DNA of 56,285 nucleotides from positions 1-56,285 of the forward strand of contig JBJFGS010000027.1 in NCBI GenBank assembly GCA_051892935.1, given 5' to 3'. Shown in pieces: positions 20,456 through 53,800 of this stretch; the stretch's first letter is position 1; each line of letters begins with the position of its first letter. A program made the translations under genes and the position numbers. This DNA comes from Candidatus Coprovivens sp. Lineage in GTDB: Bacteria; Bacillota_I; Bacilli_A; RF39; UBA660. The notes below the pieces were generated by a model that was not told the DNA's origin, did no database searches, and saw nothing but the letters and a program-made list of their open reading frames with translations.

Positions 20456-20459
20456 TAAT

Positions 20460-20484
20460 AACTCAGAGAAATCTGAGTTTTTTT
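20460..20484 (+). terminator. Terminator after spoVG
   Basis: AAACTCAGA-gaaa-TCTGAGTTT followed by T run. Confidence 0.8.
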
Positions 20485-20530
20485 GTGTTATTTTTATATT
20501 TTTATTCATATTATTATTAAGGTGATGATA

Positions 20531-20815
20531 ATGGATAATGCAAAGAATTATGATAGTACTAAACATGAAGTAAAAGTAATTGATAGAAGTCTAATTTATT
20601 TAAGTGGAATAGATAAAATTATTAGTTTTGATAGTGAAGAATTCTTAATGGAAAGTGTAATGGGAATAATTCTTCTTAAAGGAGAAAATTTAGAAATTGT
20701 AAAGCTAGATACACATGATGGAATAGTAAGTATTAAAGGAAATATTAATAGTATGATTTATGATGATGGAAAGAAAAAAGATGGTGAAACTTTATTAGGA
20801 AAGTTGTTTAAGTAA
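20531..20815 (+). CDS. yabP: Sporulation protein YabP
   Basis: H...DR..I.LSGI..I.SFD.EEF, KGENL, GKLFK end. Confidence 0.9.
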   Translation: MDNAKNYDSTKHEVKVIDRSLIYLSGIDKIISFDSEEFLMESVMGIILLKGENLEIVKLDTHDGIVSIKGNINSMIYDDGKKKDGETLLGKLFK

Positions 20816-38181: not shown

Positions 38182-38203
38182 TATAATTAATATGGTGGTA
38201 TTA

Positions 38204-39007
38204 ATGGATAAGAAAATATATTTGGATAAAGTTTTGGAATTTCTGGTTAAAGATAAAAATATAGATATTCCTGATTCATTAAGGAGTAAAGTGAATTTAT
38301 GGGAAGATTTAGTATCTAAGTTAGATGTAGATGATATACCTGATGAAGTATTACTTAATGAAGATAAGTATTTAAGATTAGAACTACTTAATAAAAGATT
38401 AACTGATGGAGAAAAAGTTAAAACTATTAGTGATACTTTAAATAGTAATCTTAAATATAGTACAAAAATCTCTTTATGGAAAGGTGATATTACAACAATA
38501 TATGCTGATGTATTAGTAAATTCTACTACTAGTGATATGATAGGTTGTAGAGAGGGAATTAAAGGTACACTTGATAATGCAATATTTACACGTAGTGGAA
38601 TGAGACTTCGCATGAAATGTAGAGATATAATGAGGGGAGAAACATTAAATAATTCTGAAATATTAGTTACTAGAGCGTATAATTTACCTAGTGATTATAT
38701 AATTCATGTAGTAGTTCCTGTTGTTAGTGATGTTTTAGGTGAACAAGAAAAAATTGAATTAAAAATGTGTTATTTAAACGTTCTGGAGTGTGCAAGAAAT
38801 AATATGGCTAAAACGATTGTTTTTCCTTGTTTAGGTACTGGAACTAATAGATTTTCAAAGAAAGAGGCAGCCATTATTGCAATTAATGCTGTTAATGAAT
38901 TTTTAGATAAGCATAATGATGAAATAGAAAAGATTATTTTTGATGTGTTAGATGATGAATCTTATAGTATATATAGTGATTTATTAATTGGTGAAGATAA
39001 TGCATGA
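38204..39007 (+). CDS. Macro-domain protein (ADP-ribose hydrolase-like, divergent)
   Basis: LWKGDIT, VN....MIGC, DNAI, TRAYNLP..YIIH, FPCLGTG. Confidence 0.85.
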   Translation: MDKKIYLDKVLEFLVKDKNIDIPDSLRSKVNLWEDLVSKLDVDDIPDEVLLNEDKYLRLELLNKRLTDGEKVKTISDTLNSNLKYSTKISLWKGDITTIYADVLVNSTTSDMIGCREGIKGTLDNAIFTRSGMRLRMKCRDIMRGETLNNSEILVTRAYNLPSDYIIHVVVPVVSDVLGEQEKIELKMCYLNVLECARNNMAKTIVFPCLGTGTNRFSKKEAAIIAINAVNEFLDKHNDEIEKIIFDVLDDESYSIYSDLLIGEDNA

Positions 39008-39875
39008 TATTTGGAATCCATGGCACGGTTGTAGAAAGAAGAGCGAGGGATGTCAACATTGTTATATGTTTTATTTAGATAGTAAACATGATAATAAGAT
39101 TCCAAGTGACAAAGTATATCGTACTAATAATTTTAATTATCCTTTGCAAAGAAATAGAAATGGTGAATTTAAAGTAAAATCTGGTGAGCAATTAAGAGTT
39201 TGTATGACTAGTGATTTTTTTATTGAGGAAGCCGATGAGTGGAGAATGGAAGCTTGGGATATAATAAGACAAAGAAAAGATGTTGTATTTTTTATTCTTA
39301 CCAAGAGACCAGAGAGGGTTAGAGATTTACTTCCAAGTGATTGGGATGATGGATATGAAAATGTCTTATTTAATGTTACGTGTGAAAATCAGGAGCGTGC
39401 TGATGAAAGAATACCTATTTTATTAGAATTGCCTTTTAAGCATAAGGGAATTATGTGTGCTCCATTTATTGGAGAAGTTAAGATAGATAAGTATCTTGAT
39501 ACTGGAAAAATAGAGCAAGTCATTGTGGGTGGTGAAAACTATGATGGGGCTAGACCATGTAATTTTGACTGGGTTGTCTCTTTATATCTATCTTGTAAAA
39601 AAAGAGATATTACTTTTGCATTTATTGAAACTGGTAGTGTTTTTATAAAGGATGAGAAAACTTATAATCTTCCTAATAAGGATATTCAAAGTATAATGGC
39701 ATTTAAATCTGGATTAAATTTCGAAGGAAAGAAGATAGATTTTAAGTTATATGATGAGTTTTATAATTTAATAAGTGAAGAATTATTATATAAACCGACA
39801 TTTAGAGATAAGTGTGCTAGTTGTGGAAGTAAGATTATTTGTAACGGATGTAGTAGTTGTGGTAAATGTAAATAA
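39000..39875 (+). CDS. DUF5131 (Gp37Gp68-like, radical-SAM-related) protein
   Basis: WNPWHGC.K.SEGC.HCY, SDFF, LTKRPER, GGE, C-terminal CxxC/CxxC. Confidence 0.85.
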   Translation: MHDIWNPWHGCRKKSEGCQHCYMFYLDSKHDNKIPSDKVYRTNNFNYPLQRNRNGEFKVKSGEQLRVCMTSDFFIEEADEWRMEAWDIIRQRKDVVFFILTKRPERVRDLLPSDWDDGYENVLFNVTCENQERADERIPILLELPFKHKGIMCAPFIGEVKIDKYLDTGKIEQVIVGGENYDGARPCNFDWVVSLYLSCKKRDITFAFIETGSVFIKDEKTYNLPNKDIQSIMAFKSGLNFEGKKIDFKLYDEFYNLISEELLYKPTFRDKCASCGSKIICNGCSSCGKCK

Positions 39876-39903
39876 AAATAGCTTTTTATAAAAAGCTATT
39901 TTT
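39874..39903. terminator. Bidirectional terminator between convergent genes
   Basis: Perfect palindrome AAAAATAGCTTTTT-AT-AAAAAGCTATTTTT. Confidence 0.8.
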
Positions 39904-40880
39904 TAATATTCAAAGTATCTCATTATTTTGGAATTTTTAATTAATAATCCTGTTGAATAATCAAGATCTGGTATATATTTATATAAACTATCAATTGATT
40001 GATTTTCATATAAAACCTGATTTATTTTATTAATAATAATTAATGTAGTGTATAAGGATTTATTATATAATTCTTCAAAAGAATAGTTATACTTTAATTC
40101 TGGTAAACTCGGATGATTCCATTCTTTTTTTTCTATATTTAGGTATTTTAAGTTTGGGTGTTTCCGATATGTACTATATGCTGCTATATATCCGAAATGA
40201 TTGAATGATATAAAGTCTAAAAAACTATAAATTAATTTTTTTATACCAAGATAATCATTTATAAATATATTATAAATTATTTTTGCATGTTTTATTGATT
40301 TTTTGTAGTATAATCCTATGTTTTTTTTATTATACGTTTTTTCATAAACGCTATTTATAGTATTTATTAATTCTTGAGATAAAATAGGATTACTTATTAT
40401 TTCTTTTGATACATTGCATTGATTTAGTTTTTTATTTGTATATTTTTCATAGTATATTGCATCTAAATCTTTTTCTATTCTATTATGTTCCCCATGGTAT
40501 TTTTTTGTATCTTTTTCTTTTTTTCTATAGACACCTGTTTTGTAAAAAATATATGGATGGCATGTTGAGTCTAGTACATAATGAGTTATGCTTCCATATA
40601 GATAAGCTATTATCTGGTGATTATTTTCTAAATGGTTGTTTTTTATTTCTTTTACAATATTAATTAAATATTCTTGAGTTTTATTTCTATGTGCATAGTG
40701 ACCAAAATCTTTTATTCTTTTAAAATTTTTTATGTCAAATGTATAATAAAATAGATAATCGTGACTTTGAGCAAATGTATGATATATAGTTAGTTCTTGA
40801 TTGAATTTGTTTAATTCATCGTTTTTTAGATGTTTTAGTACTTCTTTAGAAAACATATGATGTGTAATTAATGATGGCAT
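39903..40880 (-). CDS. Zinc-dependent phospholipase C family protein
   Basis: MP..TH N-terminus, AQSHD, THYVLDSTCHPY, HNRIE..D metal ligands; the only well-supported minus-strand gene. Confidence 0.8.
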   Translation of the reverse strand: MPSLITHHMFSKEVLKHLKNDELNKFNQELTIYHTFAQSHDYLFYYTFDIKNFKRIKDFGHYAHRNKTQEYLINIVKEIKNNHLENNHQIIAYLYGSITHYVLDSTCHPYIFYKTGVYRKKEKDTKKYHGEHNRIEKDLDAIYYEKYTNKKLNQCNVSKEIISNPILSQELINTINSVYEKTYNKKNIGLYYKKSIKHAKIIYNIFINDYLGIKKLIYSFLDFISFNHFGYIAAYSTYRKHPNLKYLNIEKKEWNHPSLPELKYNYSFEELYNKSLYTTLIIINKINQVLYENQSIDSLYKYIPDLDYSTGLLIKNSKIMRYFEY

Positions 40881-40987
40881 TTTATCACCCCTCTTTTTTA
40901 TTATATCATAATGTTAAATTGATAAATATATCGTTTAAATAACTTTTTTTCTATGTTATAATGTTATAGATAATAGGGTGATGCTAA

Positions 40988-41917
40988 GTGATAAAGACAT
41001 TTAAAACTATAGATGAACAAATTGAGATACTGAAAAGTAAAGGTTTAAATATTGATGATATCGATTATGCTAAGAGTGTTCTTTTAAGAGAAAATTATTT
41101 TTTTATAAGTGGCTATAGACATTTGTTTTTAAAATCACCTAAAGATAGAATGTTTATTCCTGGTACAGATTTTAAAGAATTATATGCTTTATTTAATTTT
41201 GATAGACAAATAAGAAATATTTTTTTTAAGAATATATTAATTGTTGAAAACAATGCTAAGAGTATTTTTTCGTATCAGTTATCTAGAAAGTATGGTATTA
41301 AAGAAAAGGATTATTTAAATCCTTCAAATTTTGATAGATCTAGCGATAAATCAAGACAAGTTAATGATTTACTTAAGAAGATTAAAAGACAGATAAGAGT
41401 AAATGGTGGTCAACATTCTGCAACAATGCACTATATGACTAATTATGGCTATGTACCTTTTTGGGTTGTTGTTAAAGTTTTGTCATTTGGTCTTATTTCA
41501 GAATTGTTTACAATTATGAAAAGGGAAGATCAAAAAGATATTGCTGAATTATATGGAATATCTGTTGAATCACTTTTAGTTTATTTACCTATATTAGCTA
41601 ATTTTAGAAATTTGTGTGCTCATGAAGATATTATGTATGATCATAGAACGCAAAGATGTATTGATGATACTAAGTATCATGCTTATTTAAATATTCCTAG
41701 GACTGATGGTGAATATATATATGGAAAAGATGATTTATTTGCTTTAGTTATAATATTAAAACAATTACTGAGTAAAGAAGATTTTACTTTATTAATTAAT
41801 GAATTATCATACGAATTGGATATATTAGATGGTAAGGTTAATACTATAGAGATGGATAAGATACTTGACAGAATGGGAATGCCTAGTAATTTTAGAGAGA
41901 TTGCGAGGTTAGATTGA
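40988..41917 (+). CDS. Abi family (Abi_2/AbiD-AbiF) HEPN RNase-like protein
   Basis: KT.DEQI..L..KGL, NYF...GY, FD..IR, P.W....SFG, HEPN RNLCAH. Confidence 0.85.
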   Translation: MIKTFKTIDEQIEILKSKGLNIDDIDYAKSVLLRENYFFISGYRHLFLKSPKDRMFIPGTDFKELYALFNFDRQIRNIFFKNILIVENNAKSIFSYQLSRKYGIKEKDYLNPSNFDRSSDKSRQVNDLLKKIKRQIRVNGGQHSATMHYMTNYGYVPFWVVVKVLSFGLISELFTIMKREDQKDIAELYGISVESLLVYLPILANFRNLCAHEDIMYDHRTQRCIDDTKYHAYLNIPRTDGEYIYGKDDLFALVIILKQLLSKEDFTLLINELSYELDILDGKVNTIEMDKILDRMGMPSNFREIARLD

Positions 41918-41918
41918 G

Positions 41919-43088
41919 ATGAACTATAATAATCAATTTGATTTCAATTCTTTTTATAATAATAACTCTGTAGCGAATGAATCACAAAAAAATAAAGGGT
42001 CAGTACAATTAGTTGTGATTTTTGTTGTAACAATAGTTATATCTATGATGTTTGGAGCTGGAGGTTTATTTATTGTCTATAAAATTAATCCTGATTTTAT
42101 AAAAACAACTTCTTCAAATGTTACAAAGATGGAAAAAGAAGTAACTGTTACTGATAATGGAATTGCTGATGCTGTAGAAAAGATATATGATTCAGTGGTA
42201 GTTGTTAAGACGTATGTTAGAAATCAAATATATTCTACTGGTACAGGTTTTGTATATAAAAAAAATAATAATCAGTATTATTTATTGACAAATTATCATG
42301 TTATTCAAGATAGTGAAAAAGTTAATGTTGTATTTACTGATGGAAGTGAAGTTACTGTTTCAGTGGCTGGAGGCGACAAATATTCTGATATTGCAGTGTT
42401 AGCTTATAATTCTCCTAAAAGTATTAAAGTTTCAGAAATAGGTAGTAGTGTAGATATGAGAGTTGGAGATACGGTATTTGCTATAGGAGCTCCTTTGGAT
42501 TCGACTGTCTATTCTTGGAGTGTTACTAGAGGAGTATTATCTGGAAAAGATAGAGAAGTTGAAGTTAGTGTAACTAATAGTTATACAACTGATTGGATTA
42601 TGCAAGTATTACAAACAGATGCAGCAATTAATAGTGGTAACTCTGGTGGTCCATTATGTAATAGTAATGGGGAAGTAATAGGTATTACAAATATGAAATT
42701 AATCACTAGTGGAGTAGAAGGTATGGGCTTTGCTATACCAATTGAAGATGCTACTACATATGCAGATAGAATTATTAATGGAGAGGATATGAGCCGTCCT
42801 TATTTAGGTGTTTCAATGGTAGATGCTTCTGTAGAAGCTTATGCAAGACAATTTGGTATATCGCCAACCGAAGGTGTTTTAATTGGTTCTGTTGAAAGTG
42901 GTTCTCCTTCTTCAAAAGCTGGATTAAGGGCTGGAGATGTAATTATTAAAATGGGAGATTCTAAGGTTACTAGTGTTGCTTCTTTAAGGTATGAATTATA
43001 TAAATATAAATCTGGAGATGTAGTAAATGTTACATATTTAAGAAATGGAAGAACGTATGTAACAAGTTTGACTTTAGTTTCAAAATAA
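41919..43088 (+). CDS. htrA: HtrA-like serine protease (TM, trypsin, PDZ)
   Basis: GTG, TNYHV, DIAV, QTDAAINSGNSGG, PDZ domain. Confidence 0.93.
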   Translation: MNYNNQFDFNSFYNNNSVANESQKNKGSVQLVVIFVVTIVISMMFGAGGLFIVYKINPDFIKTTSSNVTKMEKEVTVTDNGIADAVEKIYDSVVVVKTYVRNQIYSTGTGFVYKKNNNQYYLLTNYHVIQDSEKVNVVFTDGSEVTVSVAGGDKYSDIAVLAYNSPKSIKVSEIGSSVDMRVGDTVFAIGAPLDSTVYSWSVTRGVLSGKDREVEVSVTNSYTTDWIMQVLQTDAAINSGNSGGPLCNSNGEVIGITNMKLITSGVEGMGFAIPIEDATTYADRIINGEDMSRPYLGVSMVDASVEAYARQFGISPTEGVLIGSVESGSPSSKAGLRAGDVIIKMGDSKVTSVASLRYELYKYKSGDVVNVTYLRNGRTYVTSLTLVSK

Positions 43089-43114
43089 AAACTGATAAAT
43101 TTTTATCAGTTTTT
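43087..43114 (+). terminator. Terminator after htrA
   Basis: AAAAACTGATAAA-tt-TTTATCAGTTTTT. Confidence 0.7.
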
Positions 43115-43155
43115 ATTATTTATGATATAATACGTTTGAATTTGGGGTGAAAGTT

Positions 43156-44457
43156 ATGAAAATAGGTTTTATTTCTTTGGGGTGTTCAAAAAATTTAGTT
43201 GTTACAGAAGAAATAATAGGATTATTTAAAAAACATAATTATGAGATTGTTGGGGATCCTAGTGAAGCAGAGATAATATTAATTAATACATGTGGATTCA
43301 TCGAAATAGCTAAAGATGAGGGAATTCAAACAATTTTGGAAATGGCTGATTACAAGAAGGATAAATGTAAATATTTGATTGTTACAGGTTGTTTAGTTGA
43401 AAGATATGAGGAAGAACTAAAAAGGGAAATACCAGAAGTTGATTTATTTGTTAGTATTAAAGATTATGATAGTTTATGGGAAAAAGTTGATTCTTTAATT
43501 AATAACGAAAAAATTAGTGATAGTTTTTCTTATAAAAATAGAATTCTTACTACTGGAGATGTTATGGCATATTTGAAGATAGCTGAAGGATGTAGTAATT
43601 ATTGTACTTATTGTGCCATTCCTTATATACAAGGTAAATATATATCTAGAAAATATGAAGATATAATAGATGAAGCTAATTTATTGGCTAAAAAAGGTAT
43701 TCAGGAATTAGTAGTTATTGCACAAGATACTACTAAATATGGTATTGATTTATATGGTAAAAGTAGGTTGGCAGAATTACTTGAAGATTTATGTAAAATA
43801 GATGGTATTAAATGGATAAGATTTTTATATAGTTATCCAGAATCTATTGATGATGAATTAATTAGAGTAGTAAAAGAAAATGAGAAAATATGTAAATATT
43901 TTGATCTACCTATTCAACATATTTCTGATAAAGTTTTAAAGAGAATGAATCGTAAAAGTGATTCCAAAACAATCAAAAAACTAATAAAAAAACTAAGAGA
44001 TGAAATTCCTGATGTAATATTAAGAACAACTTTAATAGTTGGTTTTCCAGGTGAATCTATTGAGGATTTTTATGAATTAGTTGAATTTGTTAAAGAAAGT
44101 AAATTTGACAGATTGGGTGCTTTCGCTTATAGTGCAGAAGATGGAACTCCGGCTGCTAAGTTTGATAATCAAATTGATGAAAGTGTAAAAGAATCCAGAA
44201 GAAAAATTATTATGGAAACTCAACAGAGTGTTAGTTTAAAAAAATTAAAAAGTAAAATAGGAAAGGTATATGAGTGTTTAATAGAAAATATTACAGAAGA
44301 TGGAAAGTTTTATATAGCTAGAAGTTATATGGATGTTCCTTCTGAAGATGGAGTAATATATGTAAAATATGATTCAGAATATATGATTAATGAATTTGTA
44401 AATGTCAAAATAGTTGATTCTAATGAATATGATTTATTTGGCGAATTTTTTGATTAG
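43156..44457 (+). CDS. rimO: Ribosomal protein S12 methylthiotransferase
   Basis: SLGCSKN, NTCGFI, KIAEGCSNYCTYC, TRAM domain. Confidence 0.93.
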   Translation: MKIGFISLGCSKNLVVTEEIIGLFKKHNYEIVGDPSEAEIILINTCGFIEIAKDEGIQTILEMADYKKDKCKYLIVTGCLVERYEEELKREIPEVDLFVSIKDYDSLWEKVDSLINNEKISDSFSYKNRILTTGDVMAYLKIAEGCSNYCTYCAIPYIQGKYISRKYEDIIDEANLLAKKGIQELVVIAQDTTKYGIDLYGKSRLAELLEDLCKIDGIKWIRFLYSYPESIDDELIRVVKENEKICKYFDLPIQHISDKVLKRMNRKSDSKTIKKLIKKLRDEIPDVILRTTLIVGFPGESIEDFYELVEFVKESKFDRLGAFAYSAEDGTPAAKFDNQIDESVKESRRKIIMETQQSVSLKKLKSKIGKVYECLIENITEDGKFYIARSYMDVPSEDGVIYVKYDSEYMINEFVNVKIVDSNEYDLFGEFFD

Positions 44458-44460
44458 TAT

Positions 44461-44514
44461 TTTATGTAAAAAAAAACAAGATTATATTAAGTTCTTGTTT
44501 TTTTGTGCTATAAT
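44461..44514 (+). promoter_or_regulatory. Promoter with TTTATGTAA box and extended -10 (copy 1), overlapping a terminator-like hairpin
   Basis: TTTATGTAA 44461-44469; TGCTATAAT with TATAAT at 44509. Confidence 0.55.
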
Positions 44515-44535
44515 TATAAAAATAGAGGTGAGTTT

Positions 44536-45654
44536 ATGGCAACTGAAGTAACTAGTAAAACACAATTGCAAACAATATCTGGAGATTTAGCGACAAAAAT
44601 AGGATCTTTTAAAAGTGATGTAGATTCTATGAAGTCTACTTTGGATAGTGCTACTGATTATGATGGTATAAATGTAACTGGTCCTGCTAATATATTAAAA
44701 GGTAATTTAGATGCTATAGTAGAAGATTTGAATGCGGTTTCAACTAATATTACAAACTATGCTAATGCAATAGCTGAGTTTGATGTAGATGATTTTGCTG
44801 AAACTATTTTTAGTCAAGATATTATAAAAGATAGTGAAGAGGAAATTCCAGATACGAGTACGGCTACAGATAAAGTTACTACTCTTGAATGGACTGATAA
44901 TCCTACTAATAATTATGGTACTTATAATTTGAATTCAGGTAGTTATTCTAGTGGAGGAAGTTATTCTAGTGGAGGAAGTTATTCTGGTTCTAGCGGTGGT
45001 TCTAGTAGTTCATCATCTTTTGTTACTATAGGTGGTGCGGTAGCTGGAAGTACTGCTGGTAATTCTTATGGTGTTTGGGATCCATCTGAATATGTTGGAG
45101 ATAGCAGGGATATTAGTGGCTCAATGCTTGTTACCCCTAGTGGTAAGACTAGTGTAAATGGAAGAACGCAGCGTTCTGCTTTAAAAAGTTTTACTATAAA
45201 GCCTGGAAAAGCTGATGATCCAAAGATTGATATTTCAAAATATACTAATAATGAAGCAAATGGGTTTAAAGTTACTACCGGTAATTTAACATATGACTTA
45301 TGTGATGAAGATATAGAATTATTATGTGCAATAGTTGCTGCTGAAAGTGATAAGTCATATGATGATGCATTGGCTGTAATGTCGACCATATTAAATAGAT
45401 GTGAAACTTCTAACTGGATTAACTCTCATGGTAGGGATCCAATTGCTCAAGTGACAGCGCCTAATCAATATGTTGTTTATCAACATGGAACTTATGAAAA
45501 ATATATGAATGGAAATGTTCCAGAGGAAGTTAAACAAGCTGTTGCAGATGCATTAGCAGGTGTAAGAAACCATAATTATACTAGTTTTAGATCTAATGGA
45601 TCGACAAGTTATAGTGATAATATGATTACTGAGACTGGTAATAGATATTTATAG
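44536..45654 (+). CDS. WXG-like N-terminal domain, Ser/Gly linker, SleB/Hydrolase_2 cell-wall hydrolase domain
   Basis: About 85-aa two-helix N-terminus with central YDG and IAEFD; C-terminus LLCAIVAAES...AV..TILNR...PNQY matches the SleB pattern with catalytic Glu; no signal peptide. Confidence 0.75.
   Translation: MATEVTSKTQLQTISGDLATKIGSFKSDVDSMKSTLDSATDYDGINVTGPANILKGNLDAIVEDLNAVSTNITNYANAIAEFDVDDFAETIFSQDIIKDSEEEIPDTSTATDKVTTLEWTDNPTNNYGTYNLNSGSYSSGGSYSSGGSYSGSSGGSSSSSSFVTIGGAVAGSTAGNSYGVWDPSEYVGDSRDISGSMLVTPSGKTSVNGRTQRSALKSFTIKPGKADDPKIDISKYTNNEANGFKVTTGNLTYDLCDEDIELLCAIVAAESDKSYDDALAVMSTILNRCETSNWINSHGRDPIAQVTAPNQYVVYQHGTYEKYMNGNVPEEVKQAVADALAGVRNHNYTSFRSNGSTSYSDNMITETGNRYL
44941..44988 (+). 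repeat. 18-bp in-frame tandem repeat (SYSSGG)
   Basis: AGTTATTCTAGTGGAGGA twice plus a partial third copy. Confidence 0.9.
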
Positions 45655-45708
45655 TTTATGTAAAATAAGAATACTGTTATATTCTTATTTTTTTTTGTGT
45701 GTTATAAT
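45655..45708 (+). promoter_or_regulatory. Promoter with TTTATGTAA box and extended -10 (copy 2)
   Basis: TTTATGTAA 45655-45663; TGTTATAAT with TATAAT at 45703. Confidence 0.55.
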
Positions 45709-45731
45709 TAATCTATAATAGAGGTGGTATA

Positions 45732-47132
45732 ATGGCTACGGAAATAACAAGCAAAAGTGAACTAGCTAATTTAACGGTTAAATTAAGCGGTGAATCTACA
45801 GAATTAATTGATTCAAATAATGATTTGAAAGATTCTTTAAGTGGCATATCTAACTATGATGGTATAGATGTTGCTAGTGCTGCAAGTGTATTATCAAATA
45901 ATCTAGCTAATGTATCAAAAGATTTAGAAACAGTTGTTAATAATATAAAAAATTATGTTACGCAAATAACGGGTTTCGATATAGATGATTTTAATGTTAC
46001 TGATATTGAAGATTATTTGTCTGGTGTAGAAGGTGAAACTATTACATTACCTGAAGGATTAGGAGATGTTCATTCATATATGGGATGGCAATGTATTACT
46101 GCCACAAGTTCTAATCAATATAAATTACGTGAAGCAGCTGGAATGAATTTTGATTCTGAAGGTTTTGCAAAAATTGGTGATAGATATGTCGTTGCTACTA
46201 CTACGACATTCGGTAATGTAGGAGACTATATAGATGTTTATCAAGAAGATGGTTCTGTAATAAAATGTATTATAGGCGATATTAAAAATCAGAATGATGC
46301 TGGTTGTACTAAATGGGGACATAATAATGGAGATTGTGTTGTAGAGTTTGTTGTTGATAAAGATTCTTGGTATGGAACAGATAAAACTCCTAATGGGTTA
46401 CATCCTGAGTGGAATCAAAATATTACAAAGATTATTAATAAAGGAAATTATTTTAATTTAATGGATGGTAAAACTAGTACAACTGAAAGTGCTGCTGCTT
46501 CTTTTGATAAGAGTATTAATAAAATAGCTGGAGCTACAGCAGCAACTGCGGCTGCTGCACAAACTGGGGCTTCTCTTTCTGGTTATAGAAATACTAGTAA
46601 TAATAATTATTCTGGGTATTCTTCATCTGGAGAATCTTCATCAGGTGGTGGTTATCAAAGAGTTTCAACTACACCTGTTACTATTACATCAGGTGATCCT
46701 AATATAGATGTTAGTAAGTATCATAATAATATTGAAGCTGGTTTTGAAGTCACTGTTGGTAACTTGGCTTATGATTTAAGTGATGAAGATATAGAATTGC
46801 TTTGCGCAATTGTTGCAGCAGAGAGTGATAAGACTTATGATGATGCGTTAGCTGTTATTACGACAATACTAAATAGATGTGAAGCACCAAATTGGATTAG
46901 AAGTCATGGAACGGATCCAATTGCTCAAGCAACAGCACCAAATCAATTTGTCGTTTATCAACATGGTAGTTATAAAGCATATATGAATGGTAAAGCTCCT
47001 AATACTGTAAAAGAAGCAGTAGCTGATGCATTAGCTGGAGTTAGAAATCATAAATATTTGAGCTTTAGGTCAAATGGTACTACTAGTTATAGTAATAATA
47101 TGATTTCACCGACTGGAAATAGGTATAAATAG
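45732..47132 (+). CDS. WXG-like N-terminal domain, 3D/DPBB-like domain, SleB/Hydrolase_2 domain (paralog of 44536)
   Basis: N-terminus MATEITSK...YDG...ITGFD and C-terminal domain highly similar to upstream gene; extra middle domain GDRYVVA..GDYIDV..CIIGDIK..VEFVVD; no signal peptide. Confidence 0.75.
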   Translation: MATEITSKSELANLTVKLSGESTELIDSNNDLKDSLSGISNYDGIDVASAASVLSNNLANVSKDLETVVNNIKNYVTQITGFDIDDFNVTDIEDYLSGVEGETITLPEGLGDVHSYMGWQCITATSSNQYKLREAAGMNFDSEGFAKIGDRYVVATTTTFGNVGDYIDVYQEDGSVIKCIIGDIKNQNDAGCTKWGHNNGDCVVEFVVDKDSWYGTDKTPNGLHPEWNQNITKIINKGNYFNLMDGKTSTTESAAASFDKSINKIAGATAATAAAAQTGASLSGYRNTSNNNYSGYSSSGESSSGGGYQRVSTTPVTITSGDPNIDVSKYHNNIEAGFEVTVGNLAYDLSDEDIELLCAIVAAESDKTYDDALAVITTILNRCEAPNWIRSHGTDPIAQATAPNQFVVYQHGSYKAYMNGKAPNTVKEAVADALAGVRNHKYLSFRSNGTTSYSNNMISPTGNRYK

Positions 47133-47137
47133 TAAAG

Positions 47138-47191
47138 TTTATGTAAGATTTTATAAAAAAAGATTATTATGTAAAAAGTTAATGATATAAT
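47138..47191 (+). promoter_or_regulatory. Promoter with TTTATGTAA box and extended -10 (copy 3)
   Basis: TTTATGTAA 47138-47146; TGATATAAT with TATAAT at 47186. Confidence 0.55.
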
Positions 47192-47216
47192 GTGGATAGT
47201 AGAGGAGGAAAATTTT

Positions 47217-47528
47217 ATGGCAATAGTTAGTCACAATACTGATTTAATGAGAGATTGGTCTACTAATATGGATGATAAAGCTAGTAATTATGATGAATTA
47301 GTTTCTAGTCTTTATAACCTAGTAAATCAATTCGTAGGTTCTGAAGAATTTAAAGGAGGTTTATCTACTGATTTTGAAGAAAAAGTAGTTAGTCAAAGAC
47401 CTGCTTTCGAAAGGTATTCTTCAACATTTGCTGAATGTACTGAATTAATTCGTAAGACAGCAACTAATATTGATTCTGATGAAGCAGAATTAAAGAGTGC
47501 TATTAATAGTGCTAACCCATTAGGGTAG
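47217..47528 (+). CDS. WXG100-like protein 1 (FKG variant)
   Basis: 103 aa, helix-FKG-helix, C-terminal IDSDE (hxxxE); RBS GAGGAGG. Confidence 0.7.
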   Translation: MAIVSHNTDLMRDWSTNMDDKASNYDELVSSLYNLVNQFVGSEEFKGGLSTDFEEKVVSQRPAFERYSSTFAECTELIRKTATNIDSDEAELKSAINSANPLG

Positions 47529-47557
47529 TTTTATTCGTAAAGTAAGGAGGAATTTAA

Positions 47558-47839
47558 ATGGCAGATGGTATTTTAAAATTAAGTCCAGCTGAGGCTAGAG
47601 CAAAAGCTCAAGAAATGAAAAAGATTGCAGATGAAATGCAAACATTGTTAGAGGATGTTTCTAAGCGTATGGAAGAAGTAGACAATGTTGAAACTGGTAT
47701 GTATCAAGGCGATAATAGACCAGCTCAATTAAGAGCAGAATTAGATGAATTTAGATCTATTTTTAATAATGCTTATGAACAAATTACTAAGTCTTCAAAT
47801 GATATAATTGCAATTGCAAATGTTTCTGAAGCACAATAA
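47558..47839 (+). CDS. WXG100-like protein 2, EsxA-like (YQG variant)
   Basis: 93 aa; LKLSPAEARAKAQ closely resembles S. aureus EsxA IKMSPEEIRAKSQ; central YQG; RBS AAGGAGG. Confidence 0.78.
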   Translation: MADGILKLSPAEARAKAQEMKKIADEMQTLLEDVSKRMEEVDNVETGMYQGDNRPAQLRAELDEFRSIFNNAYEQITKSSNDIIAIANVSEAQ

Positions 47840-47840
47840 T

Positions 47841-47882
47841 AAAAAAAGACTTTTTATAACTTGTTTATAAAAAGATTTTTTT
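47841..47882 (+). terminator. Hairpin/attenuator between the two WXG pairs
   Basis: CTTTTTATAA-cttgt-TTATAAAAAG followed by T7. Confidence 0.55.
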
Positions 47883-47898
47883 CTAGGAGATGAGTTTT

Positions 47899-48189
47899 AT
47901 GGCAGATAAATATGTTCATAGACCAGATGGAGTTGCAGCTGCTGTAACTAAAATGAGATCTTTAATAAGTGATTATAAAGATAAAATAGTAGAAATTACT
48001 AATTTAGTAAATACTATTGAAGGTAGTACATCTTGGAAAGATGCTATAGTTAAAACAGAATTTATAGCAACGTGTAATTCCTATATTCTGGTATATAAAA
48101 ATCTTGCTACTTCGATGGAAAATTATGTAAATTATTTGAGTAGTAAGTCAAGTAGTGGCGAAGAGCTAGAAAGAGCATTTTCGGGGTAA
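47899..48189 (+). CDS. WXG100-like protein 3 (WKD variant)
   Basis: 96 aa, amphipathic helices around central SWKD, C-terminal EELERAFS. Confidence 0.68.
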   Translation: MADKYVHRPDGVAAAVTKMRSLISDYKDKIVEITNLVNTIEGSTSWKDAIVKTEFIATCNSYILVYKNLATSMENYVNYLSSKSSSGEELERAFSG

Positions 48190-48195
48190 TTGATT

Positions 48196-48477
48196 ATGAG
48201 TAATACAAATTATACTGATACAGCTGTTTATGTAGAAACAGAATCATTAACAGGATGGAGTACAAAAATGAGTGAAATTAATACTGCATCCGAAGAAATT
48301 CTTTCCGAATTTGAATCTTCTGTAGTATCATTAAAAGATGATTGGAAAGGTAATTCTGCTGATGGTTTTGAATCGTCTTTAAATAGTTGTTTAAAATCAG
48401 CAAAATCGAAACATAATGAAATGGGAGACGTTGAAAAATTCTTATTAAAGGTTATTGATACGATGCAAAAGCAATAA
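48196..48477 (+). CDS. WXG100 protein 4 (canonical WKG)
   Basis: 93 aa, central DWKGNSADGF, typical of WXG100. Confidence 0.82.
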   Translation: MSNTNYTDTAVYVETESLTGWSTKMSEINTASEEILSEFESSVVSLKDDWKGNSADGFESSLNSCLKSAKSKHNEMGDVEKFLLKVIDTMQKQ

Positions 48478-48575
48478 TTATTAGTAGGAAATAAATTTTA
48501 TATATTTCCGTTTTATATAAAAAATTAAGGTAATATTGTTAAATATTATGATAAAAAAGAATAGAGGCGTTGTGT

Positions 48576-49610
48576 ATGGGATATAGTAGTATAGCTAGCT
48601 CCATTAGAAATAAAGTAAAAAGTGTGGATACTGCTCTTTCTTCTGTAAAAGGTATTTCTTTTACTGGAGTTTGGAGTGGAGATGCATATAATACACAGTC
48701 TTCTAATTTAAATGATAGTCTTAATAATATAAGTGCTCAAAGAGATTTAGCTATTAAATTGGCTGATGCTCTAGATAAATTACAGCAATATAAAGATAAT
48801 AAAGAAAAGATTGAATCTTTACAAAGTCAGTTAAATAGTTTAGCTAATACTGAAGAAAATGCTTCATTAATTAGTAGTTTGAGAAATCAGATAAGTCAAT
48901 TACAATCGGCTAATAATACATTGCGTTCTGATATCGGTGCAATTGTTAGTGGTTTTTCTTCTGTTAGTACAAAGTATGAAGAAGTGAAGTATGAAGCTAA
49001 TACTGACTATATGGATTATGTTGTTGATTTAGCTGATATGTTAACTTTATTTAATTCTGGTAGTTTAACGAAAATACCTGATAGTGGAAAGAATAGTCTT
49101 TATGATTATTATTCAGAAGAAGAAGTTGATGCCAAGTTAAATGAAATTAGAAGTAAATATTCAGGTCGTGAGGCGGCTGTTAATTGTGCTTTAGGTATAA
49201 TGGAAATGGCAGCTTCTGTTGGTTTAAAACTCGATTATGATTGGGGTGGAGGTCACACCACAGTCACAGATGTTGATCATGTTGCAACTGGAACAGATTG
49301 CAGTGCTTTTGCTTCATGGGCAATAAATCAAGGTGCAAGTTCAACATTTAATACTAAGACTACTGCAGGATTAATAAATGTTGGAACACAAGTTTCATAT
49401 GAAGATGCCCAAAAAGGAGATATTCTTGTATATAATTCTGGTGGTAATGGCCATGTTGTTATGATAGTTGATAATGATCCAGATACACAACAATTCTTAG
49501 TTGTAGAGGCTTCTGGTAGTAATTCTGGAGTTATTATGCAGACTAGATCATATGCATCCTTATCGGGAACATACCAAGCGAGAGATTTATCAAGTATTTA
49601 CAATAATTAA
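48576..49610 (+). CDS. WXG-like N-terminal domain, coiled coil, NlpC/P60 peptidoglycan endopeptidase
   Basis: VWSGDAY; YDWGG...DCSAFASW...GDILV..GHV...EAS catalytic pattern; no signal peptide. Confidence 0.8.
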   Translation: MGYSSIASSIRNKVKSVDTALSSVKGISFTGVWSGDAYNTQSSNLNDSLNNISAQRDLAIKLADALDKLQQYKDNKEKIESLQSQLNSLANTEENASLISSLRNQISQLQSANNTLRSDIGAIVSGFSSVSTKYEEVKYEANTDYMDYVVDLADMLTLFNSGSLTKIPDSGKNSLYDYYSEEEVDAKLNEIRSKYSGREAAVNCALGIMEMAASVGLKLDYDWGGGHTTVTDVDHVATGTDCSAFASWAINQGASSTFNTKTTAGLINVGTQVSYEDAQKGDILVYNSGGNGHVVMIVDNDPDTQQFLVVEASGSNSGVIMQTRSYASLSGTYQARDLSSIYNN

Positions 49611-49634
49611 AGTCTTTTGTAAGACTTTTTTTTT
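49609..49634 (+). terminator. Terminator closing the WXG cluster
   Basis: AAAGTCTT-ttgt-AAGACTTT followed by long T run. Confidence 0.7.
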
Positions 49635-49678
49635 ATATAATGATATAATAATTTTAAGAATAGATAAGGGTGAAGCTT

Positions 49679-51223
49679 ATGAAAAATATCGAAGGATTAT
49701 TAGGTAGACAATTAAATGCGTTATTTAATAAGGACTTTTCTAATACTGAATTTTCTGATGAAGAATTAAATATGGTTAAATCTATAAATATTTCTAAAAG
49801 AGATTTATCATATTTGGAGTTATTTAATAATTTAGAAGAGTTAGAAATAGATTCTTTTCCTTCTGTTAATAATGAAGATATTCTATATATTGGTAGAAAG
49901 CAACCTTTTCTTAAAAAGTTAAAGATTAAGGAGCAAAATGCCTTATTTCTATTAAATTTGTCATTATTTAAAAATTTGGAGGAATTATGTTTAATTCATA
50001 ATGATAATATTATAGATATTTCCGGTTTAAATAGAATAAAAAGATTTACCTTTTATGATAATAAAGATTACAATAATATTAGACAGATTGTTGATTTATT
50101 ACTAAAGAATAAAGATTCTATTATTACTTTAGATATTACTTATTATATTAATATAGTTAAAGTATTATTTGATATGAAAGTTGATATCGATATTTTAAAT
50201 GGTGTTAGTTGGATAGAATCTATTGGCTTAAGAAGATATAATACTTATCAATATTCTAATTCTGAGATAGATTCATTATTTAAATGTATTTCATACATTT
50301 CTTCGAAGTATGTTTATTCTAATGATGATGATATAACTAAGTTTAGTGTATTATATACATGGATGGTTAATAATATTAAATTTATTAATGAGGATGATTC
50401 AGAAGGTGAAAATCTAAGTTTAATTAGTAATGTTAATAAGGTTTTCAGTTATGGAAGAGGTGGCCGATTAACACTTGCTAAAGCTTTTCAGCTATTATTA
50501 AGTTTTGTTGGAATTAAGTCGTCTGTTGTCTATTCAATGGGAGCAAATGAAGTTATTGGATATTACAATGGAGAAAAAGTGTGTTCTTTGCTTGGCGAAT
50601 CTGATTATGCTGTGCTAAGAGTTACTTTAGATAATAAAGATTATTATTGTGATATTGCTTGGGATACATTAATTAACTTTCATGGATTTTTCGAACAATT
50701 AAGGTTTTTCTTATTTTCTAAAACAGAATTAAAAACAAGACATAGATTTGTAGGAGAAGGTAATATTGTTAAAACGTATTCTTATCATGGTGATGATTGT
50801 GATGAAGTAATTAAAAAGGCTAGAGAAAGAATTAAAGAAGTTGATGAGATTTTTTCTGATATAGAGAGATTGGATCCTAAGATATTAGGTAGTGAATTCA
50901 ATATATCTCTAATAAAGATAGATATTAACGATATAAAGAATGAATTAGATAATTTGGAGATAGGATCTCAAGAATATAAAAATAAAATGGCGGAAATGAT
51001 AGATTTAGAAGATAAAATTGATAATATTAGTAATGAATTGATAAGATTTGAAAATAGTAGAGATGGTATAATAAAAAACTATGCTAATTTGTTGCTAAGT
51101 AGATATTTGCCAGGAAATGACAAACTGGATAAACAGAATATTATTGAATTATTGGATAAAAAGAAACATATGTTACTTATTTCTGAATATATTGTTGAAT
51201 TATTAAAAAAATGTTTAAAGTAA
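49679..51223 (+). CDS. LRR, inactive transglutaminase-like domain and coiled-coil protein
   Basis: LxxLxI repeats (FNNLEELEI, FLKKLKI, FKNLEELCL); LYTWMVNNIKF...LAKAFQLLL..GI.S...YYCDIAWD. Confidence 0.65.
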   Translation: MKNIEGLLGRQLNALFNKDFSNTEFSDEELNMVKSINISKRDLSYLELFNNLEELEIDSFPSVNNEDILYIGRKQPFLKKLKIKEQNALFLLNLSLFKNLEELCLIHNDNIIDISGLNRIKRFTFYDNKDYNNIRQIVDLLLKNKDSIITLDITYYINIVKVLFDMKVDIDILNGVSWIESIGLRRYNTYQYSNSEIDSLFKCISYISSKYVYSNDDDITKFSVLYTWMVNNIKFINEDDSEGENLSLISNVNKVFSYGRGGRLTLAKAFQLLLSFVGIKSSVVYSMGANEVIGYYNGEKVCSLLGESDYAVLRVTLDNKDYYCDIAWDTLINFHGFFEQLRFFLFSKTELKTRHRFVGEGNIVKTYSYHGDDCDEVIKKARERIKEVDEIFSDIERLDPKILGSEFNISLIKIDINDIKNELDNLEIGSQEYKNKMAEMIDLEDKIDNISNELIRFENSRDGIIKNYANLLLSRYLPGNDKLDKQNIIELLDKKKHMLLISEYIVELLKKCLK

Positions 51224-51285
51224 AATAGTTGTGCTATTTTATTTTTTTTATGTACTTATGATATAATTAAAATATGGTGGATTAT

Positions 51286-52734
51286 ATGAAGAATATGTTA
51301 ATAAAAATAAGTATAATAATTACTTTAATATTAATTGTTTCTTTGGGTGTTATATATTATTCTAGTGAAAGAGTTATATTAACTATTAATGGTGAAGAAA
51401 AAATTTTTTTGAATCTAGAAGATGAATATAATGAAAAAGGAGTAATTGCTAAGGTATGTAGGTTTAATAAATGTAAAGATATTACTAATCGAGTAAGTAT
51501 TATTGGTAGTATTGATACAAAAGTTATTGGAGATTATATAGTAAAATATGAAATTGAGTATAATAATAAAAAGTATATTCAAGAAAGAACTGTATCTGTT
51601 GTTGATAGTGTTGCACCTATTATTTATTTACAGGGTAGTAAGAATATTCAAATATGTCCTAATGAAGAATATATAGAAGAAGGCATTGTTGCTGTAGATA
51701 ATTATGATGGTGATATAAGTAATAGAGTTGAAGTTAAAGAAAATAATAGTGGTATTTCATATAATGTTGCAGATTCGTCTAATAATATTTCTGAAGATTA
51801 TAGAGTTGTAAATAAAATAGATGTAGAGAAACCTATAATTACATTAAATGGTCCTAAGACGATTAATTTAAAATTGAATGATAAGTATATAGAGTATGGT
51901 GTAATAGTAACGGATAATTGTGATGAGATTTCTCAAGAAAATGTAGTAATAACTAATAATGTAGATACTTCTAAAGAAGGAACTTATAATGTAAACTATT
52001 CTGTAAAAGATAATTCTGGTAATATAGGTACAGTTAATAGGATTGTTGTTGTTAGAAATCCAGTAACATTTGATACGGATGCTAAAGAAGAATATATAGA
52101 AAATCTTGAAAAATATATAAAAGATAAGAATTATAATATTAGTTTGGGATATGTTAATTTAAATACAGGATATACTTATATGTATAACGAAAAGGTAATT
52201 TATTATGGAGCTAGTCTGGTAAAAACCGTTGATGCATTATATGTTTATGAGAAAATGAATTTTGATGAAAATACTAGAAAAAATGTTGAGCAGGCTATTT
52301 CCATTAGTGACAATGATGCTCATAGAATGTTAGTAGATAAAATTGGGATAGAAAACTTAAGAAGTTATGGAAGAAGTATAGGAGCTATTAATTTTTTAAC
52401 TCGTTCAAATAATGATTATTTTGGGAATACTACTGTTAAGGATCAAATTTCTATTTGGAAGCATTTATATAATTTTATAAATACTAGTAATAAAGGTATT
52501 GAGTTGAAAAATTATTTTGTTAATACTTATGCTAATTTTTTATTATTTGACGGAATTCCTATTACTATGCATAAATATGGTTATTATGATGTTTATTATC
52601 ATGATGTTGGAATAGTGTTTTCAGATAATCCTTATATAATAGTTGTTTTGACGAAACATGGTAAGGGAGATTATAAAAATATAGTTAGTGATTTATCTAA
52701 GAAAATATATGAATTGAATAAAATTGATAATTAG
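51286..52734 (+). CDS. Membrane-anchored Ig-like (DUF5011) repeats plus class A beta-lactamase-like serine hydrolase
   Basis: TM; P.I.L.G...Y.E.G..A.DN.D repeats; ASLVK (SxxK), SDN, HKYG. Confidence 0.82.
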   Translation: MKNMLIKISIIITLILIVSLGVIYYSSERVILTINGEEKIFLNLEDEYNEKGVIAKVCRFNKCKDITNRVSIIGSIDTKVIGDYIVKYEIEYNNKKYIQERTVSVVDSVAPIIYLQGSKNIQICPNEEYIEEGIVAVDNYDGDISNRVEVKENNSGISYNVADSSNNISEDYRVVNKIDVEKPIITLNGPKTINLKLNDKYIEYGVIVTDNCDEISQENVVITNNVDTSKEGTYNVNYSVKDNSGNIGTVNRIVVVRNPVTFDTDAKEEYIENLEKYIKDKNYNISLGYVNLNTGYTYMYNEKVIYYGASLVKTVDALYVYEKMNFDENTRKNVEQAISISDNDAHRMLVDKIGIENLRSYGRSIGAINFLTRSNNDYFGNTTVKDQISIWKHLYNFINTSNKGIELKNYFVNTYANFLLFDGIPITMHKYGYYDVYYHDVGIVFSDNPYIIVVLTKHGKGDYKNIVSDLSKKIYELNKIDN

Positions 52735-52747
52735 GTGGGTGTTTATT

Positions 52748-53530
52748 ATGCAAAAGTTTATTGCTCGTAAAGGTTATGTTTTAATAGTAGTGTTGCTTGT
52801 TATAGGTGTAGTATTATTTAATATTAATGAAACTTATAGTGATAAAGGTACTGAACTTAAATATGTACTTTATAATGAAATATTGAGAAATAATACTATT
52901 TTATTAGAAAATGATAGTGATGGTCTTATTTACGATAGTAATGATAATTATTATTATTTTAATGGTAATGTTGAAAATAATTATATTGTGGTAAATAATG
53001 AATTATGGAGGATTGTTGCTATAAACAATGATAGAAGTATAAGGATTATTAAAAATTATGGTATAAGTGATAATAAATTATATACTTTTAATAATGATTA
53101 TACTAATTATAAGTACCAAGAGAGTAATATTATGAATGAATTATTGCTATGGTATGATAATAACTTTATTAATGCTGATAAATATGTTGTTGAAAGCGAG
53201 TATTGTGTTTTATATCAGAGTAATACTTGTTTAGAAAAAAAATATTATAAAGTTGGTTTATTGAATATTGAAGAAGTTATGAGAGCTGGTGGTAGTATAA
53301 GTAACAATGAATCATATTATTTATATAATTATTATGATTGGTGGATTATTAATAATGACTATGATGATGTTATTGATAGTGCTTATGCAGGATTTGTTAA
53401 TTCTTTAGGTAGTATTGATAAAGGATTTGTTGATGAAACTAAAACTATTAGACCAGTTATTAATTTAAAGAAAGATACTTATATTAATGGTATTGGTACG
53501 ATAGATGATCCTTATATAATAGTTAGTTAA
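52748..53530 (+). CDS. Membrane-anchored protein with pilin-like N-terminus and WRI/VGL/RPVI.L/GT..DPY domain
   Basis: RKG-YVLIVVLLVI; NNY...WRIV, KVGLL..E, WW, IRPVINLK, G.GT.DDPY. Confidence 0.65.
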   Translation: MQKFIARKGYVLIVVLLVIGVVLFNINETYSDKGTELKYVLYNEILRNNTILLENDSDGLIYDSNDNYYYFNGNVENNYIVVNNELWRIVAINNDRSIRIIKNYGISDNKLYTFNNDYTNYKYQESNIMNELLLWYDNNFINADKYVVESEYCVLYQSNTCLEKKYYKVGLLNIEEVMRAGGSISNNESYYLYNYYDWWIINNDYDDVIDSAYAGFVNSLGSIDKGFVDETKTIRPVINLKKDTYINGIGTIDDPYIIVS

Positions 53531-53800
53531 AATAGTTTAAAAAAGCAACTTATGTTGTTTTTTTGTTAATAAGAATATATATATTGATATTGTTTATTTT
53601 ATGTTAAAATGACTAACTTTATTATTAAAGAATAATATTTTAAAGTGAGTATACTATTAGATTAATACTTAATAAATCATTTAAAGAATGTGATTATTAT
53701 ATTTTATATTGTATTTTATGTGTAAACTATTTAATTTTAAGATTGACTAAATTTTGAGGTTCATGTTAGCATATTTTTCATTAATTAAAGGGGGAAAAAT

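Follow-up and report, generated by a model that had tools for sequence, protein, structure and literature searches.

How could a bacterium bring enzymes that cut peptidoglycan to the far side of its own membrane if none of them carries a signal peptide? The question is raised by seven adjacent genes, here called A to G, on a contig of a Candidatus Coprovivens species (order RF39 of the Bacilli; GenBank assembly GCA_051892935.1, contig JBJFGS010000027.1), which was analysed over its full 56,285 nucleotides and is referred to below as the window. Three of the products (A, B and G) join a helical leader to wall-lytic domains, and the four encoded between B and G (C to F) are small proteins belonging to, resembling or tied to the WXG100 family. 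On balance we think it probable that A, B and G are type VII substrates with a peptidoglycan-hydrolase cargo, co-exported with Lap-like helpers. The cluster would then be an 'orphan' type VII substrate operon, for which we infer that the helpers bind the leaders, that export depends on an EssC ATPase and that the hydrolases are enzymatically active.

The seven open reading frames (ORFs) lie on the plus strand and fill positions 44536-49610 of the window, as an earlier reading of the bare sequence (hereafter the original prediction) had described, with intergenic gaps of 0-98 nt and a GGAGG-like site 6-10 nt 5' of each preferred start. The central W/Y/F-x-G(D) motif that it had read in all seven is likewise there (Table 1). 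No 19-residue segment of any of the proteins reaches a Kyte-Doolittle mean of 1.6, and for none of the genes is there a longer upstream ORF that might carry a signal peptide; because the ORFs cannot be extended upstream, there is no hidden Sec or Tat leader in A to G, in agreement with what had been predicted. The trivial explanation that these are chance ORFs was rejected, because related species hold orthologues of all seven genes, at 27-96% identity.

In place of a Sec signal, A, B and G begin with a helical leader. In an AlphaFold2 model of A built with 18 homologues (mean predicted local distance difference test score, pLDDT, 63.4) the leader forms a helix at residues 2-37, a loop with Y42-D43-G44 and a second helix at 48-80 (pLDDT 73-84), followed by a Ser/Gly-rich linker (87-189, pLDDT <50) and a folded C-terminal domain. 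The model of G (24 homologues, mean pLDDT 87.2; residue numbers for G count from the 346-residue ORF starting at 48570) has helices at 5-27, 38-89 and 95-127, with W35-S-G37 in the loop between the first two, and drops below 50 at 140-147. The two leader types align with each other by hhalign (92.8% probability, E 3.9e-7), and a local hidden Markov model of the A leader scores B at 103 bits. Apart from SleB (4fet, 4f55), the best Foldseek matches of the A model are mostly Esx/ESAT-6/CFP10 chains (TMt 0.60-0.72, root-mean-square deviation (rmsd) 2.5-2.9), among them CFP10/ESAT-6, Bacillus anthracis EsxB, Geobacillus EsxA, EsxGH and EsxEF, together with one TelA-LXG/LapA3/LapA4 chain; by VIA-align the leader of G matches EsxEF (4i0x, Z 9.3, rmsd 1.7 over 73 residues), a PE/PPE complex (Z 9.1) and EsxA (Z 8.1). 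The helical hairpins expected of the N-termini are therefore what the models of A and G give, with WXG100 proteins among the nearest solved structures. In A and G a helical N-terminal domain precedes a separate C-terminal effector domain, as in LXG proteins, and adjacent small WXG100-like genes of the Lap kind are present as C to F, although the leaders of A, B and G are shorter than the ~200-residue LXG model.

The leaders are not confined to this cluster. The G-type leader occurs on five proteins of the window's genome (two NlpC/P60, one CHAP, one GDPD at 44 bits and one with an unknown domain) and the A-type leader on three. Beyond this genome, a search of 1.84 billion cluster representatives with the A-type leader gave 119 matching clusters, the great majority of them with the match at the N terminus. 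We scanned 50 of these, omitting 61 shorter than about 250 residues, 4 giants whose matches are internal and repeat-like, and 4 that had been scanned earlier. A Pfam family (E <= 1e-4) was found in 20 of the 50, and in 18 of those 20 it is wall-lytic or wall-binding: Phage_lysozyme2 accounts for 10 (one also with CHAP), Hydrolase_2 for 2, CHAP alone and Glucosaminidase for 1 each, LysM for 2 and CW_7 and choline-binding repeats for 1 each, with Peptidase_C39-like in a further 2. Nuclease, NADase and deaminase families were absent from those found. The short A-type leader family is lineage-restricted, and its partners are nearly always domains that cut or bind the wall, those of phage-tail-lysin type among them. 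A homologue search with G 1-140 recovered the G family only (20 proteins).

Two further loci of the genome bear on the reuse of the G-type leader. On contig C17 (10276-12150; L028:277-2151) a 624-residue protein combines it with the GDPD domain (44 bits) and another domain at the C terminus, and two YibE/F membrane proteins are encoded next. The 624-residue protein is a candidate hydrolase of teichoic acids or glycerophosphodiesters that has a type VII-like leader. On contig C36 (99709-101143; L025:11710-13144) a 143-residue CwlJ-like Hydrolase_2 protein (66 bits) directly precedes one that joins a G-type leader to an unknown C-terminal domain and may serve as leader-bearing partner for the leaderless CwlJ-like lysin.

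The predicted cargo is peptidoglycan hydrolases. By Pfam, the C-terminal domain of B belongs to Hydrolase_2 by score (29.9 bits, cut-off 27); that of A scores 23.3 bits, below the cut-off, and is placed in the family by its 73% identity to the domain of B and by the SleB catalytic domain 4fet, the best Foldseek match of the A model (TMt 0.68, prob 0.97, E 0.31). Neither is a SleB equivalog: on TIGR02869 A reaches 23 bits against a cut-off of 236.5, and B gives no match. E270-S271-D272 is invariant among 18 A-type sequences. B carries an additional module, of which residues 113-243 are 46% identical (E 4e-29) to an annotated 'tail lysin' of Eggerthella phage LE1-1. At the corresponding position, all four of the scanned orthologues from other species contain the phage tail lysozyme domain PF18013 (117-123 bits); in the ESM Atlas, residues 92-250 of B find unnamed, partly viral clusters (best score 0.89), the nearest named match being a 3D domain at 0.81; both scores are below the trust level and serve as a lead only. 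G is an NlpC/P60 protein by model (35.2 bits, cut-off 23; CHAP 28.3 bits), by fold (SagA NlpC/P60 domain in VIA-align, Z 12.9, rmsd 2.3 over 116 residues; many other NlpC/P60 domains at Z 11-13) and by its catalytic Cys and His, and in a profile search of PDB sequences it also matches the catalytic domain of CwlO at E 2.2e-4. At least 90% of 24 G-type sequences retain W35, G37, C244 and H295. We take E270 to be the SleB catalytic Glu, and C244 and H295 presumably are the NlpC/P60 Cys and His; by analogy with RipA, E313 may be the third catalytic residue of G. The catalytic residues of the A-type and G-type enzymes therefore look intact. The original count of four stand-alone proteins and three fusions to wall-lytic domains stands, except that the module of B at 92-243 had gone unlisted.

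The four small proteins are of a length (93-103 residues) usual for WXG100 proteins, and their motifs are conserved in 11-13 orthologues, the canonical W-x-G being present in F only. F exceeds the Pfam WXG100 cut-off (PF06013, 27.3) with 28.5 bits; C (19.6 bits, E 1.1e-3) and D (18.6 bits) fall below it, and E has no match. None of the four reaches the TIGR03930 cut-off of 44.85, on which F (30.1 bits) and C (22.8 bits) rank as in Pfam, and D also matches ESAT6_2 at 18.6 bits, again below cut-off. By hhalign, C aligns with E at 88.6% and with F at 63%; E belongs to no Pfam or NCBIfam family and is tied to the WXG100-like set through C alone. A separate line of evidence comes from contig C36, on which a G-like CHAP protein is flanked by paralogues of E (91.5 bits, 91471-91770) and F (83.6 bits), which independently ties E and F to proteins of the G type. 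A predicted complex of E, F and G 1-135 scored 0.00, which amounts to no verdict and is used neither for nor against binding.

A candidate export machine is encoded elsewhere in the genome (1.81 Mb in 53 contigs, 92% complete). Two EssC genes exceed the TIGR03928 cut-off, at C14:40855-45522 and C24:144157-148755 (967 and 912 bits), and each is followed by an ORF of 85 or 91 residues, one of which has a weak ubiquitin-like match, and by WXG100-like genes. The genome holds 12 WXG100 matches in all, as well as other likely substrates: an RHS protein, a DUF4176 protein and an ADP-ribosyltransferase beside a WXG100 pair. All 15 related genomes with G-family loci encode EssC, compared with 78 of 151 in a sample of the order, and all 4 genomes of that sample with a full-length G are also EssC-positive. 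The multi-FtsK-domain ATPase that the original prediction called for in carrier genomes thus exists, twice over here and in all 15 related carriers. What had been termed a divergent type VII secretion system (T7SS)-like export module is better described as a substrate cluster in a genome with EssC, not an export module, the ATPase genes being on other contigs. The surroundings of the two essC genes (C14:30000-49100 and C24:132000-149000; L021 and L023) contain large proteins of no family with helical N-termini (794, 803 and 2397 residues), an RHS-repeat protein and DUF4176 but no recognisable EssB, EsaA or YukD, and both loci may represent an undescribed reduced T7SS layout.

The accessible text of Garrett et al. 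2024 (PMC11217815) describes eight further type VII subtypes built around TsxA/B/C, and 'Lap' genes, small and WXG100-related, of which one or two flank a substrate gene. The anatomy of A to G matches this published rule, because it combines a helical targeting domain with adjacent WXG100-related partners. We hypothesize that the leaders, a WXG100-like hairpin of ~85 residues in A and B and a three-helix LXG-like unit of ~130 residues in G, replace the Sec signal; that C, D, E and F would act as Lap/Esx-like helpers packing against them into helical bundles; and that the EssC ATPases encoded on the other contigs would recognise and export these bundles. Beyond the membrane, the SleB-type lytic transglycosylase domains of A and B, the tail-lysin-type module of B and the NlpC/P60 domain of G would cut the wall, the proposed cut sites being glycan strands and peptide stems. 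In the accessible text of two T7SSb reviews (PMC10765036, PMC13492133), the way in which effectors cross the thick Gram-positive wall is called an open question, the cell-wall-directed type VII toxin is the lipid II phosphatase TelC, and the CHAP proteins of some (streptococcal) type VII loci have no established secretion link. A peptidoglycan hydrolase as proven type VII substrate appears neither in that text nor in the corresponding parts of PMC13059805, a preprint on the group B Streptococcus T7SS (10.1101/2023.01.25.525443), Whitney et al. 2017 (PMC5555719), PMC12116727 and Zhang et al. 2012 (PMC3482391), supplements and subscription papers lying outside this scope. The cluster thus suggests a kind of type VII cargo without prior experimental demonstration.

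The position of the cluster is stable among related loci and shared by at least 9 related species. The loci belong to gut Bacilli that are uncultured, part of them under the title Candidatus Coprovivens. C, D, E and F stand in this order before one or two G genes in 10 of 17 such loci (C is present in 12, D in 11); MiaB lies directly upstream in 9, with HtrA also in 7 of those 9, and the gene following G in the window, H517, directly follows the G gene or genes in 8, at 29-74% identity. The same slot between MiaB and H517 is held in species as distant as 40-50% protein identity. The A/B genes vary among the 17 in copy number and middle modules. The family is narrowly distributed: a G profile (E <= 1e-10) matches 12 of the 151 order genomes and includes the leader in only 4 of them (G000, G013, G027 and G105), and in a class-wide sample of 399 genomes only 3 have the A-type leader.

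It is important to note that several observations weigh against export by a T7SS. The leader fold matches are weak, with Foldseek E values of at least 0.9 and VIA Z scores of 8-9 where helical models often get to 13 by chance alone, and the leader of G reaches Z 10.3 with unrelated bMERB helices. No Foldseek match of the A model reaches E 0.001, and in the PDB sequence search with the A and G profiles the leaders gave coiled-coil noise alone (E > 0.03). Because these fold statistics are weak, the leaders are consistent with WXG100/LXG-like hairpins but unproven as such by fold search. Pfam LXG (PF04740) is unmatched by A, B and G at E <= 1, its sole match in the genome being a 108-residue protein on contig C24 (16.8 bits), and three of the four putative helpers, C, D and E, stay under the WXG100 cut-off. 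The cluster is not adjacent to essC. In this genome, complete to 92%, EssB/YukC (PF10140), EsaA (TIGR03929) and YukD (PF08817), for which the original prediction had proposed a search, have no match at E <= 0.01. The apparatus is therefore not a canonical T7SSb, and it looks like one of the reduced type VII variants. Since the genomes in which EssC and the cluster co-occur are close kin and not independent, that association can be called suggestive but not statistical. Neither the cluster nor its immediate flanks hold an obvious immunity gene, and between A and B and between B and C there is no gene at all; downstream, H517 has neither a hydrophobic segment nor a family, and the protein beyond it is kept in few related loci (see below). 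The synteny is fixed, and conservation is higher in the catalytic domains than in the leaders (in B, 78-92% at the C terminus and 56-86% at the N terminus), the reverse of polymorphic toxins. The lack of an obvious immunity gene and a synteny this constant are at odds with a classical polymorphic toxin island. Lastly, the organism sporulates, and Hydrolase_2 is the SleB/CwlJ cortex-lytic family, so that a non-secretory, sporulation-linked role is possible.

Table 1. The seven genes of the cluster and the gene that follows them (positions in the window).
Feature	Position	Strand	Length (residues)	Central motif	Architecture and remarks
Gene A	44536..45654	+	372	Y-D-G	Hairpin leader 1-88, linker ~88-190, Hydrolase_2 ~205-372
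Gene B	45732..47132	+	466	Y-D-G	Leader 1-91, lytic-type module 92-243, linker, Hydrolase_2 303-466
Gene C	47217..47528	+	103	F-K-G	WXG100-like; longer ORF from 47190
Gene D	47558..47839	+	93	Y-Q-G	WXG100-like
Gene E	47890/47899..48189	+	96-99	W-K-D	Small helical protein; conserved S-x-x-W-K-D
Gene F	48190/48196..48477	+	93-95	W-K-G	WXG100 family
Gene G	48576..49610	+	344	W-S-G	Three-helix LXG-like leader, disordered stretch, NlpC/P60
H517	49670..51223	+	517		Context gene, not proven part of the cluster; no Pfam match at E <= 0.01, no hydrophobic segment, weak Transglut_core at E 0.03

The surroundings of the cluster can be described briefly. Its G+C content (0.29-0.32) is near that of the flanks. 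Promoter-like sites (84 at 43000-53800, 80.7 expected) and terminator-like sites (2, 1.4 expected) are uninformative on the limits of an operon. Contigs from RNA libraries (two metatranscriptome runs from two studies), 98-100% identical to the cluster, run from C into D and from F into G and cover some of G, which is compatible with expression in the animal gut, DNA carry-over being possible; only contigs were compared in these runs, and the uncovered A, B and most of E prove nothing. Just upstream of HtrA, at 38192-41917, are genes for a Macro-domain protein, a DUF5131 protein, a Zn-dependent phospholipase C (minus strand) and Abi_2, which make up a small islet of defence-like or variable character; housekeeping genes are therefore not all that the neighbourhood contains, and the earlier statement that the region bears no mobile-element marks, true of the cluster itself, is too sweeping for the 2.6-6 kb upstream of it where these genes lie. 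Two genes past G, at 51274-52734, is the gene of a membrane-anchored protein that combines three bacterial Ig-like domains with a Beta-lactamase2 domain; kept there in 3 of the 17 related loci, it is conceivable as a wall-side partner or protector.

The most serious alternative, which we nevertheless regard as unlikely, is that A, B and G are enzymes of sporulation or autolysis and not type VII substrates. On this view G would be a DL-endopeptidase, and A and B would lyse the cortex or the mother cell in the manner of SleB and CwlJ. All three would be made without signals in the mother cell and reach their substrate through deposition on the spore or rupture of the membrane, the helical N-termini being localisation or auto-inhibition domains and the small proteins unrelated WXG100 genes. 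The setting is favourable to it. SpoIVA exceeds its cut-off in the window's genome and in 127 of 151 order genomes, the Mur ligases are present, and this 1.8-Mb 'reduced' genome is that of a spore former; because the lineage sporulates, the SleB-type domains of A and B could act on spore cortex, an alternative natural substrate that the roles first proposed (attack on other bacteria, exploitation of host or prey, wall remodelling) had not taken into account. In the window, SpoVT-like, YabG, SpoVG and YabP genes and a CwlD-like Amidase_3 gene, the last after rplM-rpsI, occur at 13247-13783, 19059-20815 and 37531-38181. The germination enzyme SleB as best fold match of the A C-terminal domain, the fixed housekeeping position without an immunity gene, and the CwlJ-like protein of contig C36 (143 residues, 99709-100140) with the G-type-leader protein after it point the same way. 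Lysins without a signal are known in mother cells, and CwlC, CwlH and CwlJ of Bacillus subtilis lack signal peptides. Against this stand four WXG100-like genes inside the operon, with C to F all present in 10 of 17 loci, and the distribution: only 4 of 151 genomes hold a full-length G and 3 of 399 the A-type leader, whereas SpoIVA is found in 127 to 130 of the 151, so that the family is far rarer than sporulation and therefore not in the lineage's core germination set. Nor are the domains joined to the leaders (tail-lysin types, CHAP, GDPD, LysM, choline-binding) specific to cortex; the TIGR02869 score is 23 bits against 236.5, and EssC is present in 15 of 15 carriers.

The sporulation genes of these bacteria show a further peculiarity. 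In about ten related genomes of the order, spoIVA is split at residue ~121-124, with the two parts at contig ends (e.g. on C9 and C2 of G027); in G038 they lie 2.6 kb apart on one contig (C2:72632-73003 and 75618-76745). This looks like an intervening element inside the gene.

A much less likely explanation concerns G, which might be the FtsEX-controlled division hydrolase of the lineage, of the CwlO/PcsB/RipC-Cg1735 kind, with an incidental resemblance to WXG proteins. Its whole architecture does match Cg1735 (8aud_B, Foldseek E 3.8e-5 over 360 columns; 8auc_B, Z 12.2) and PcsB (4cgk_B, Z 8.4), as its catalytic domain matches CwlO in sequence (E 2.2e-4). However, the Cg1735 and PcsB alignments have an rmsd of 10-40 Å, so that only the domains, and not their arrangement, match. 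G has no signal peptide or membrane anchor, W35-x-G37 is kept in at least 90% of its 24 homologues, and its leader recurs in front of CHAP, GDPD and other domains. A separate ftsE-ftsX operon is moreover followed by a 402-residue protein with an N-terminal hydrophobic leader and a Glu/Lys/Ala-rich, helical-looking start (C24:112352-115198). We give least credence of all to the cluster as remnant of a prophage or conjugative element, its lysins once associated with virions or mating and since immobilised: the middle domain of B is 46% identical to a phage tail lysin, its orthologues carry PF18013 and G matches PHROG 1015 ('tail protein with lysin activity', E 4e-6; also, weakly, an SbcC-like coiled-coil family), yet PHROG gives no match for the other six genes or H517, genes for an integrase, capsid, tail or transfer function are absent from the cluster and from next to it, and the chromosomal slot between MiaB and H517 is constant among distant species, at a G+C content near that of the flanks.

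Returning to type VII export of A to G, whose wall would the hydrolases cut? The leading option, to which we give somewhat less than an even chance, is action on the walls of other cells, either killing them or breaching the wall for the genome's other type VII toxins. A self-directed role, in opening the producer's own wall where EsaA is not recognisable, or in a task of sporulation or germination, is a more doubtful option. It is tempting to speculate that spore-forming, small-genome gut Bacilli evolved dedicated WXG-type leaders that send tail-lysin-like hydrolases, along with a putative teichoic-acid phosphodiesterase, into a T7SS stripped down to EssC, a ubiquitin-like protein and WXG100 proteins and lacking recognisable EssB and EsaA; these enzymes would be both the first class of type VII peptidoglycan-hydrolase effectors and the missing wall-breaching factor; we offer this as a tentative proposal. 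If it were true, such enzymes would be a Gram-positive counterpart of the Tae and Tge effectors of type VI secretion systems (T6SS), a factor letting type VII toxins cross the thick wall of producer or prey, and a Sec-independent export route for autolysin-like enzymes. The leaders would also define a new, narrowly distributed family tied almost exclusively to wall-active domains, and murein hydrolases with a type VII-like leader of their own make the question of wall crossing testable.

Comparison with known systems places the cluster among several familiar kinds of hydrolase without identifying it with any. Phage tail lysins (PF18013; Eggerthella phage LE1-1), enzymes that cut the wall from outside, share the middle module of B, but B is chromosomal and fuses that module to a WXG-like leader and a second lytic domain. 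SleB and CwlJ share catalytic fold and family with the C-termini of A and B, in a host that sporulates; unlike them, A and B have neither a peptidoglycan-binding domain nor a signal peptide, begin with a WXG-like leader and, in the case of B, include a tail-lysin-type module. The FtsEX-coupled hydrolases (CwlO, PcsB, RipC/Cg1735) are defined by a Sec signal and by pairing with FtsEX, neither of which applies to G.

Another is EssH of Staphylococcus aureus, as presented in the accessible text of PMC13059805: a CHAP murein hydrolase tied to type VII, needed for T7SSb secretion and proposed to open the wall locally. It differs from A, B and G in having a canonical Sec signal and in being explicitly not a type VII substrate; it acts with EsaA, which was not found in the window's genome by its model. 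The effectors of T6SS (Tae amidases and Tge glycoside hydrolases) resemble A, B and G in the Sec-independent, specialised delivery of wall enzymes, by another machine, with another leader and with periplasmic immunity proteins; in the accessible text of Zhang et al. 2012 (PMC3482391), Tox-NlpC/P60 and Tox-Glucosaminidase are placed under T6SS and Photorhabdus virulence cassettes (PVC), not under T7SS.

The nearest relatives in organisation are the LXG toxins of T7SSb with Lap1/Lap2 (DUF3130/DUF3958), such as TelA and TelC of Streptococcus intermedius, EsaD and TspA of S. aureus and YxiD of B. subtilis. The cluster departs from them in the unmatched Pfam LXG model, in an A/B leader that is just a hairpin of ~85 residues, in four helpers for three substrates, in a cargo of peptidoglycan hydrolases instead of nucleases, NADases, a lipid II phosphatase, lipases and pore formers, and in a fixed locus with conserved catalytic domains and no recognised immunity gene. 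Like these toxins and the Lap-flanked substrates of T7SSc-j in the accessible text of PMC11217815, however, A, B and G have a helical N-terminal domain in the place of a signal peptide and adjoining small WXG100-related genes, and as in the LXG/Lap systems the genome encodes an EssC-type ATPase and reuses the leader on varied C-terminal domains.

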